Shown here: piece after piece, positions 57,211 to 57,773 of the stretch
How the letters are laid out: each line of letters begins with the position of its first letter
Position numbering within the stretch: the stretch's first letter is position 1
From: Eledone cirrhosa
Taxonomy: Eukaryota
DNA length: 64,000 bases
Direction of reading: 5' to 3'
Assembly (NCBI GenBank): GCA_964016885.1
Contig: OZ024742.1
Coordinates: forward strand, 327,794,001-327,858,000
Position numbers and translations under genes: made by a program
The notes under the pieces: model-generated
What the model was told of the DNA's origin: nothing
The model's input: the letters and a program-made list of their open reading frames with translations, nothing else
Databases searched by the model: none

Positions 57211-57418
57211 TATATATATATATATATATATATATATATATATATATATATATATATATATATATATATATATATATATATATATATATATATATATATA
57301 TATATATATATATATATATATAAAAGCAGAAGGGATATTCAATTTGTTGGTGATTCAACAAATATAAATGTTTATAACTGATTCAGAGCACTCGACAAAT
57401 TTTCTGGAGTATAATATT

Positions 57419-57773
57419 CAATGATATTAAATAAATGGAAACTATATTTATAAATCCATATTTATTCTATTATATATATTTCTAGGGTACCAAAACTTTG
57501 GTACACTATCATCAGATAAAATACGAAGTGTGTTTTATAAATTTTGACATAACCAAGGAAAATATACTTTAACGGTTCAAGTTTTCCTTGGATAGACTAT
57601 CCAAGGAAAACTTGAACCGTTAAAGTATATTTTCCTTGGTTATGTCAAAATTTATAAAACACACTTCGTATTTTATCTGATGATAGTGTACCAAAGTTTT
57701 GGTACCCTAGAAATATATATAATAGAATAAATATGGATTTATAAATATAGTTTCCATTTATTTAATATCATTG
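57419..57773. repeat. Perfect palindrome (177 bp arms, centre 57596) of the 40228 hammerhead unit
   Basis: CCTTGGATAG-A-CTATCCAAGG; left arm continues to ~57322 as a full unit. Confidence 0.93.
57669..57729 (+). ncRNA. Minimal type I hammerhead ribozyme motif (mirror copy 57463-57523 on -)
   Basis: TATTTTAT-CTGATGA-TAGTGTACCAAA gt TTTGGTACCCTA-GAAA-TATATA-TA-ATAGAATA: intact core, three stems. Confidence 0.8.

Follow-up and report, generated by a model that had tools for sequence, protein, structure and literature searches.

Hammerhead motifs on both strands of a palindrome in Eledone cirrhosa: a likely leftover of a Penelope-like element

Introduction

Penelope-like elements (PLEs) provide the closest described counterparts of the locus reported here. 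According to PMC8557442, insertions of PLEs often show an inverted 5'-truncated copy, a tail that often stands at one end and a bias towards (TA)n, and the supplement to that paper describes Hydra-clade PLEs, one of them from an octopus, that target (TA)n and carry 3' hammerheads. In Penelope-13_HM, a member of this clade, the copy at the 5' end is inverted and both strands carry a hammerhead (PMC8557442, supplement). Where copies are inverted, they most often stand head to head (PMC3846280). In metazoan PLEs, pairs of hammerheads lying 100-700 bp apart on opposite strands have been reported, and in tests of comparable PLE hammerheads, monomers showed no activity and dimers weak activity (PMC4209133). 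Further, the purified protein of Poseidon, a PLE of the green anole, cuts AT-rich DNA, extends both strands, uses uncleaved RNA as a template and has two start sites on the RNA, between which the tail lies, while the hammerhead needed protein and was dispensable for insertion (PMC11167929). Non-LTR retrozymes, which are PLE derivatives and may occur as monomers, are short non-coding units with one type I hammerhead (PMC7229834; bioRxiv 10.64898/2026.07.22.740005).

We analysed a stretch of 64,000 nucleotides from Eledone cirrhosa (assembly GCA_964016885.1, contig OZ024742.1, positions 327,794,001 to 327,858,000), hereafter the window, in which all positions below are counted. It is microsatellite-rich animal DNA with several retroelement ORFs, and an initial annotation had singled out a palindrome at 57322-57773 with hammerheads on both strands. 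The locus works like the inverted terminal repeat of an EN+ PLE, with which it has in common a type I hammerhead, a short palindromic helix III, a head-to-head inverted copy, a one-ended tail (97 nt here, 30-40 nt in published cases) and an insertion site in (TA)n or AT-rich DNA. Neither the arrangement nor a tail on one side is new as such; both are already published.

The resemblance is most detailed to the inverted terminal repeats (pLTRs) of the (TA)n-targeting Hydra clade, such as Penelope-13_HM and Hydra-1_Obim (PMC8557442; PMC3846280), which are likewise head-to-head with a one-sided tail in (TA)n, have a type I hammerhead some 100-200 nt short of the 3' end and a hairpin at the 5' end of the repeat. 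Unlike these, the present locus has neither an ORF nor a second direct repeat, its arms reach the same 5' point, and its hammerhead, compared by eye, has no match among those listed in the available part of the PMC8557442 supplement, where two motifs of the unit do not occur either. The minimal, small-helix-III hammerheads of metazoan PLEs (PMC4209133) share the CUGANGA/GAAA core, the long helix II and the short palindromic helix III, but they differ in the first pair of stem II, which is a highly conserved G-C there and U-A here, and the locus has a longer stem I (8 bp) and the triplet AUA. Poseidon shares the AT-rich target, the use of both strands, the two reverse transcriptase starts that bound the tail and the uncleaved template; its ORF begins inside the hammerhead and its tail is coding (PMC11167929), whereas no frame stays open through the tail here. 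Non-LTR retrozymes are similar in size class, coding content and hammerhead type, but they form head-to-tail tandems, whereas the copies here are head-to-head with fixed ends.

The palindrome and its repeat unit

The locus can be read as an insertion of 452 bp into a (TA)n microsatellite, in which two copies of a 274-nt unit stand head to head. Its two arms, 57419-57595 and 57597-57773, match at 177/177 positions around a single central base, A57596, and the first mismatch outward is 57418/57774. The long arm (57322-57595, minus strand, 5' end at 57595) is the full unit, non-coding and with one hammerhead motif; the short arm (57597-57773, plus strand) is the unit's first 177 nt and is identical to the long arm. 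The remainder, 57322-57418, is an unpaired extension of 97 nt, or tail, which belongs to the minus-strand copy and contains an 11-nt motif at 57386-57396. The earlier description of 57322-57773 as a perfect palindrome thus stands for 57419-57773 but not for the tail. (TA)n lies at both outer ends, as a (TA)56 microsatellite on the left (57210-57322) and as a short run on the right (57774-57788) that is common to the insertion and the short arm of a neighbouring element. The palindrome is local, and its two flanks differ.

A solo full-length copy of the unit lies at 40230-40498 (plus strand) with (TA)n on each side and is 91% identical to the palindrome unit (24 differences in 272). Because its first bases and its long 3' end coincide with those of the palindrome copy, the unit length can be put at about 274 nt. 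The palindrome centre coincides with the start of this copy, so that the fold-back point is indeed at the unit's 5' end, within 0-2 nt as judged against one independent copy. On the short-arm strand, the central base 57596 is the same as the base upstream of the solo copy, which, being one base, is weak evidence.

Counted within the unit, the hammerhead core lies at nt 81 and cleavage is predicted at nt 125; the GC content of the region is 30%. A 10-bp hairpin spans its first 43 nt (57601-57639 on the plus strand, mirrored at 57553-57591; DNA fold z -3.4 and -3.3) and is retained in the solo copy via a paired G/C deletion. The 11-nt tail motif is also present at 40425 and in a distant relative at 63698; these three matches compare with a chance mean of 0.27, and 0/100 shuffles reach three. 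The distant relatives, family D in the labels A-J of this analysis, occupy 63408-64000 with the same stem III box and one occurrence of the tail motif; they comprise one inverted pair cut by the window end and one solo copy that ends near the short end.

No open frame runs through the unit or its tail, no ORF starts in the tail, and no ORF for a PLE-type reverse transcriptase (RT) and GIY-YIG endonuclease of its own was found in or adjoining the unit; an autonomous PLE was for this reason rejected as an identity of the locus. The unit matched only its own three copies in the window, no coding partner among them, and showed no head-to-tail repeat there. Bacterial and archaeal genomes gave 0 matches, and a comparison of the N-termini of long PLE proteins with all units gave nothing significant (best E 0.07).

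The arms are identical as initially described, and the 0/177 differences set a 95% upper bound of 1.7% on arm divergence, or under ~2.4 My at the octopus clock quoted in PMC13282606, if the octopus rate applies and the arms were not homogenised. The two arms of an inverted repeat can be made alike by template switching (PMC8604942). A recent event, as previously proposed, is thus plausible, but homogenisation is a possible cause of the identity, and the 9% difference between the palindrome copy and the solo copy implies either a different source copy or homogenised arms.

The hammerhead motif

The plus-strand motif is a type I hammerhead at 57669-57729, made up of stem I (57669-76/57722-29), the core (57677-83), stem II (57684-57709), GAAA (57710-13) and a self-complementary stem III box (57713-20), with a predicted cut after 57721; its mirror image lies at 57463-57523 on the minus strand, with a predicted cut after 57471. 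Each arm has the CUGAUGA core, GAAA and the UA site, so core nucleotides and NUH site are complete, in agreement with the initial annotation, and the cleavage position proposed there fits the sequence of the motif (A57721). Stem II had been given as 12 bp with one mismatch and is corrected here to 10 pairs with one U-C mismatch and a 4-nt loop, because with a twelfth pair the loop would shrink to 2 nt; the stem begins with a U-A and not a G-C pair. Stem I does have 8 pairs, seven A-U and one U-G. Stem III is only 2 bp in a monomer and longer if two molecules pair via the self-complementary box, which bears out the earlier proposal to test cleavage in a dimer as well.

The motif is not a chance occurrence. 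A strict hammerhead descriptor found three sites in the window (the two palindrome arms and 40308) and none in each of 20 block shuffles, and a pattern of core plus stem III found the same three sites and none in 100 shuffles. Only the strict descriptor was used, since a loose one did not discriminate (4 real sites against 0-5 in shuffles) and was dropped; likewise, a scan for the 3' half-motif was too noisy, and its inverted-repeat list alone was taken further. Rfam models gave 0 hits of any kind in the whole window at gathering score, and no hammerhead was among the 34 matches in 57200-57900 at E up to 10, all of which were below gathering score. The microRNA matches in this region were rejected, as they reflect the hairpin at sub-gathering scores. 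A bacterial promoter scan, at chance level and not applicable to animal DNA, was set aside.

Between the copies, 0/13 core positions differ (P=0.30, not significant), the hammerhead and its flanks do not differ significantly in divergence (Fisher P=0.61), and four differences fall at the stem II base. The stem III box also occurs in the distant relatives at 63.4-64.0 kb.

Predicted activity of the ribozyme

Folding was estimated with a nearest-neighbour model, which includes neither tertiary contacts nor protein. The catalytic register of stem I has a probability of ~0.03 for a piece of 111 nt and of 0.004 for the complete unit, and the active fold makes up 0.4-3% of the predicted ensemble. 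The active dimer is predicted at -28.2 kcal/mol and the best co-fold at -40.6 kcal/mol, a gap of 12 kcal/mol. A read-through transcript is predicted as a hairpin of -294.8 kcal/mol with a 177-bp duplex; RNA crossing the locus would meet the antisense arm first and fold into this duplex, burying the motif. The earlier claim of intact hammerheads on both strands is accordingly supported for the full core in each arm but not for function, the catalytic register being a minor fold, and the hammerhead on the second strand follows automatically because the arms form a palindrome.

On these estimates, self-cleavage is expected to be poor and to depend on a dimer or on the help of a protein. Clear protein-free cleavage of 57660-57740 appears unlikely for the monomer; for an enforced dimer it is conceivable, at less than even odds. 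Published observations on the unusual features of the motif point in several directions: non-G-C first pairs of stem II occur in Hydra-clade hammerheads (PMC8557442, supplement), and AUA sites work in nature, the AUA triplet being the slowest of four post-transcriptionally and the second fastest during transcription (PMC1636495). On the 10.1-11.1 pair, nothing was found in the available part of PMC544870. The likelier fate of a read-through transcript would be a dsRNA hairpin feeding small-RNA silencing, and siRNAs arising from Penelope inverted repeats have been described (PMC3681739). All three copies run through the cut site and keep ~124 nt upstream of it, from which we infer that their templates were uncleaved.

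Penelope-like and other coding elements in the window

The window contains a coding PLE and the remnant of a second one. An ORF at 45665-46993 (minus strand) has RVT_1 and GIY-YIG domains, and its best named relatives are from Octopus bimaculoides (62-63% identity). It is part of a 5'-truncated PLE at 45130-46993 (minus strand), whose RT plus GIY-YIG frame is open, which has (TA)n at both ends and whose 3' region holds a minimal hammerhead motif with a CCGAAGA core. A decayed Penelope-like remnant at 19830-22430 (minus strand) lies between (TA)n runs and has a cysteine-rich linker before a weak GIY-YIG match; for the remnant at 20.4-22.4 kb this match was sub-threshold (E 0.019; tblastn E 1e-4). 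Near 19955-20070, a hammerhead-like motif whose stem II is long was recognised by eye. Neither of these two PLEs matched the unit in sequence. Other retroelements include an apparently intact two-ORF non-LTR element (3377-5305 and 5302-8754, both plus strand) with AP endonuclease, RT and zf-RVT in a 1150-aa frame, and RT fragments at 723-2690, 12442-14991, 22519-24177 and 40823-41635.

Recurrence of the long-plus-short architecture

In at least eight inverted pairs of the window, which come from several repeat families, a long arm is joined to a short one and both end in (TA)n. This recurrence, the one-sided tail and the Penelope-like context had all been missed in the initial annotation. For the survey, 24 non-microsatellite local inverted repeats were hand-listed from the inverted-repeat list after simple-repeat rows had been dropped. 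In 8/24, a (TA)n run lies at most 18 nt from one end and the other end is 39-96 nt away from such a run; a similar rule is satisfied by random intervals 2.4% of the time. Two more (28.1 kb and 48.5 kb) fit by alignment, one (63.75 kb) is cut by the window end, and one (31.2-32.4 kb) is counted among the exceptions to the rule. One has equal ends (43497/44982), with each piece bordered by its own TA runs, and 11 have no tie to (TA)n. Inverted-repeat elements without such a tie include those at 36481-37366, 39074-39736 and 53109-53360; they comprise one with 108-bp arms (96%) and a dispersed ~150-bp family, often found as inverted pairs.

The 3' ends are unequal in 9/9 hand-picked aligned pairs, with tails of 37-97 nt, and 16/18 ends of these pairs have a TA run of at least 10 nt within 30 nt, against a background of 7.1%. 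Among independent copies, three short and two long ends of family C, and three short and three long ends of family E, recur at the same base. Older pairs follow the same plan, with an arm identity of 77-98% over the self-alignment. Families A, B, C, D and E have hammerhead-like motifs, which in C, D and E are partial or have a variant core; two of the nine aligned pairs lack a clear hammerhead (none found in G, degenerate in H), and none was found in the 24.4-kb pair.

A near-perfect head-to-head palindrome, unrelated in sequence to the one at 57 kb, occupies 46988-47952, with 450-bp arms (47053-47952, 3 mismatches, no spacer), a 65-nt tail, (TA)n on both sides and a hammerhead-like motif with a CUGAGGA core in each arm. 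A link between it and the adjacent PLE ORF was considered and rejected: there is no sequence match, and a (TA)n run lies between the two. Family E comprises three long-plus-short pairs (57785-58656, 43631-44409 and 28048-28297) with tails of 86-87 nt and, in copies retaining the core, a variant hammerhead-like core with A at position 4. The first of these lies directly to the right of the insertion, with which it shares the (TA)n at 57774-57788, and has an 87-nt tail; a reading of this neighbour (57785-58569) as a MITE was rejected in view of its hammerhead-like motif and tail. Family C includes two short palindromes (39892-40088 and 62746-62927) that keep only the 3' half of the hammerhead, with a GUC site, and have an 82-83-nt tail on one arm, as well as a longer inverted pair (31148-32448) with the full motif and a degenerate core.

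Families H/J (48512-49105 and 44750-44982) also form a long-plus-short pair, whose tail reads as an ORF start in two copies; a protein search with the 38-aa tail peptide gave five weak unnamed matches and no PLE link. Similarly, the pairs at 30287-31070 and 24347-24603 are long-plus-short at (TA)n, with tails of ~37 and 67 nt, and no hammerhead was recognisable in them. Directly to the left of the insertion, 56503-57209 contains direct repeats of 118 nt (95%) at a distance of 590 nt and is bordered by (TA)n left and right; this unit resembles a partial tandem, and no hammerhead was found in it.

Origin of the insertion

We regard the locus as a PLE-type insertion of a non-coding terminal unit, with a probability of roughly 85%, in view of the recurring architecture, the coding PLE in the same window and the published features of PLE insertions. 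How the two arms arose is less certain, and a route by two target-primed cDNAs is our leading proposal, held tentatively and at a little under an even chance. The unit would represent a PLE's terminal repeat (pLTR), or else a non-autonomous derivative of such an element, and a PLE reverse transcriptase with its GIY-YIG endonuclease would have copied one uncleaved RNA twice. The endonuclease would cut both strands within (TA)n, and each target 3' end would prime a cDNA at one of two RNA start sites; with these sites 97 nt apart, one arm would be long and the other short. Both cDNAs would pass the hammerhead site, stop at the same 5' point and join there, and the second hammerhead would be a by-product of the duplication. 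To our knowledge, PLE RTs are without RNase H, so that one RNA could be copied twice. In L1 twin priming, both target strands prime cDNA as well, giving a 5' inversion; L1 inversions rearrange non-overlapping parts of the RNA, whereas the present locus duplicates the whole 5' part.

The main competitor keeps the PLE origin and replaces the second priming event by fold-back, in which a single cDNA or antisense template would prime itself at the 5' end of the unit, and copying would run back along it until AT micro-homology linked the product to the far (TA)n end. We consider this less probable than the two-cDNA route, but still a strong alternative. It would account together for the identity of the arms, the centres of 0-1 nt (57 kb, 47 kb) and the fact that the second arm never exceeds the first in length, and self-priming was proposed, and preferred, in PMC3846280. 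Short ends are often AT-rich, several of them abutting AT-rich micro-homology that fold-back capture would also explain, and three pairs (39.9, 62.8 and 63.8 kb) begin within or just upstream of stem II. Against fold-back, the ready-made 10-bp snap-back hairpin at the start of the unit was not used, since nt 1-43 are duplicated, and a 1-nt centre would require untemplated bases. The 62.8-kb pair has, on its short arm, 13 nt of 5' element sequence absent from the long arm, and the short ends of family C follow a CC or TC dinucleotide and yet recur at one site. The hairpin and the 13 nt, together with the action of the Poseidon protein on both strands and at two RNA sites, lead us to favour two cDNAs. 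The two-cDNA step has its own difficulties: PMC11167929 saw no difference in start site between strands, so that long-long and short-short pairs would also be expected, and template switching can invert spacers later. Within a PLE origin, a route other than these two is improbable. The PLE origin itself is weakened by the lack of a coding partner in the window, by the tail length, which exceeds the published range, by the surveyed repeats that depart from the (TA)n rule and by the two aligned pairs in which a clear hammerhead is missing.

A later origin of the second arm, by a DNA-replication template switch or break repair at an established solo copy, appears very unlikely. Such a copy does exist (40230-40498), and template switching creates as well as homogenises inverted repeats (PMC8604942), but this would leave unexplained why short arms end at the same element base and in (TA)n at independent loci of several families. 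A non-LTR retrozyme that spread as self-cleaved circular RNA is more remote again: the type I hammerhead, the AT-rich unit of ~270 nt and the PLE ancestry of retrozymes would suit it, whereas the lack of head-to-tail repeats in the window, the two full copies that start and end at the same bases rather than at permuted points, and the weak predicted active fold would not. Perfect palindromes are a known type of artefact, and a read fold-back in library or assembly would give one. PLE repeats also trouble assemblies (PMC8557442), but an artefact has only a slight chance here, as the palindrome is local with differing flanks, is centred on the biological start of the solo copy and has older companions of the same plan with diverged arms. 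Least probable of all is a selected dual-polarity ribozyme device, either viroid-like or a bidirectional unit with dimer-cleaving transcripts. The full core on both strands and the self-complementary stem III box invite this reading, but the plus and minus hammerheads of viroids are distinct sequences and here one sequence is mirrored, the best co-fold is predicted to be more stable than the active dimer, a read-through transcript is predicted to fold as a hairpin, and there is no match in bacterial or archaeal genomes. A MITE or fold-back DNA transposon was rejected, the arms differing by 97 nt and the solo copy having no inverted partner.

Returning to the two-cDNA route, it may be generalised: (TA)n-targeting PLEs would integrate here by read-through twin priming, with one ribonucleoprotein priming each cut strand at a different fixed RNA site and both cDNAs reaching the 5' end of the uncleaved template, so that two-armed insertions would be obligately long plus short. 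This rule is more speculative than the route for the single locus, and we give it rather less credence. In the literature covered, which includes few subscription papers, neither this unit nor an obligate long-plus-short coupling is listed.

Significance

The palindrome is likely an ordinary leftover of a Penelope-like jumping gene. As a ribozyme it is ordinary too, because PLE-linked hammerhead motifs number in the thousands in animal genomes and pairs on opposite strands have been described. Short hammerhead units of this kind are readily mis-annotated as MITEs or microRNA hairpins, as the spurious Rfam microRNA matches illustrate. The value of the finding is that of a clean, young example of PLE integration, the mechanism of which is named as unresolved in PMC8557442. 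The strict pairing of a long with a short arm offers a modest clue to PLE integration. If it holds genome-wide, counting in a single assembly could tell two-primer models apart from fold-back ones, and could also locate the RT start sites and the cis motif in the tail. If twin priming is true, the pairs in this window would be a fossil record that decides how the inverted repeats and tails of PLEs form.
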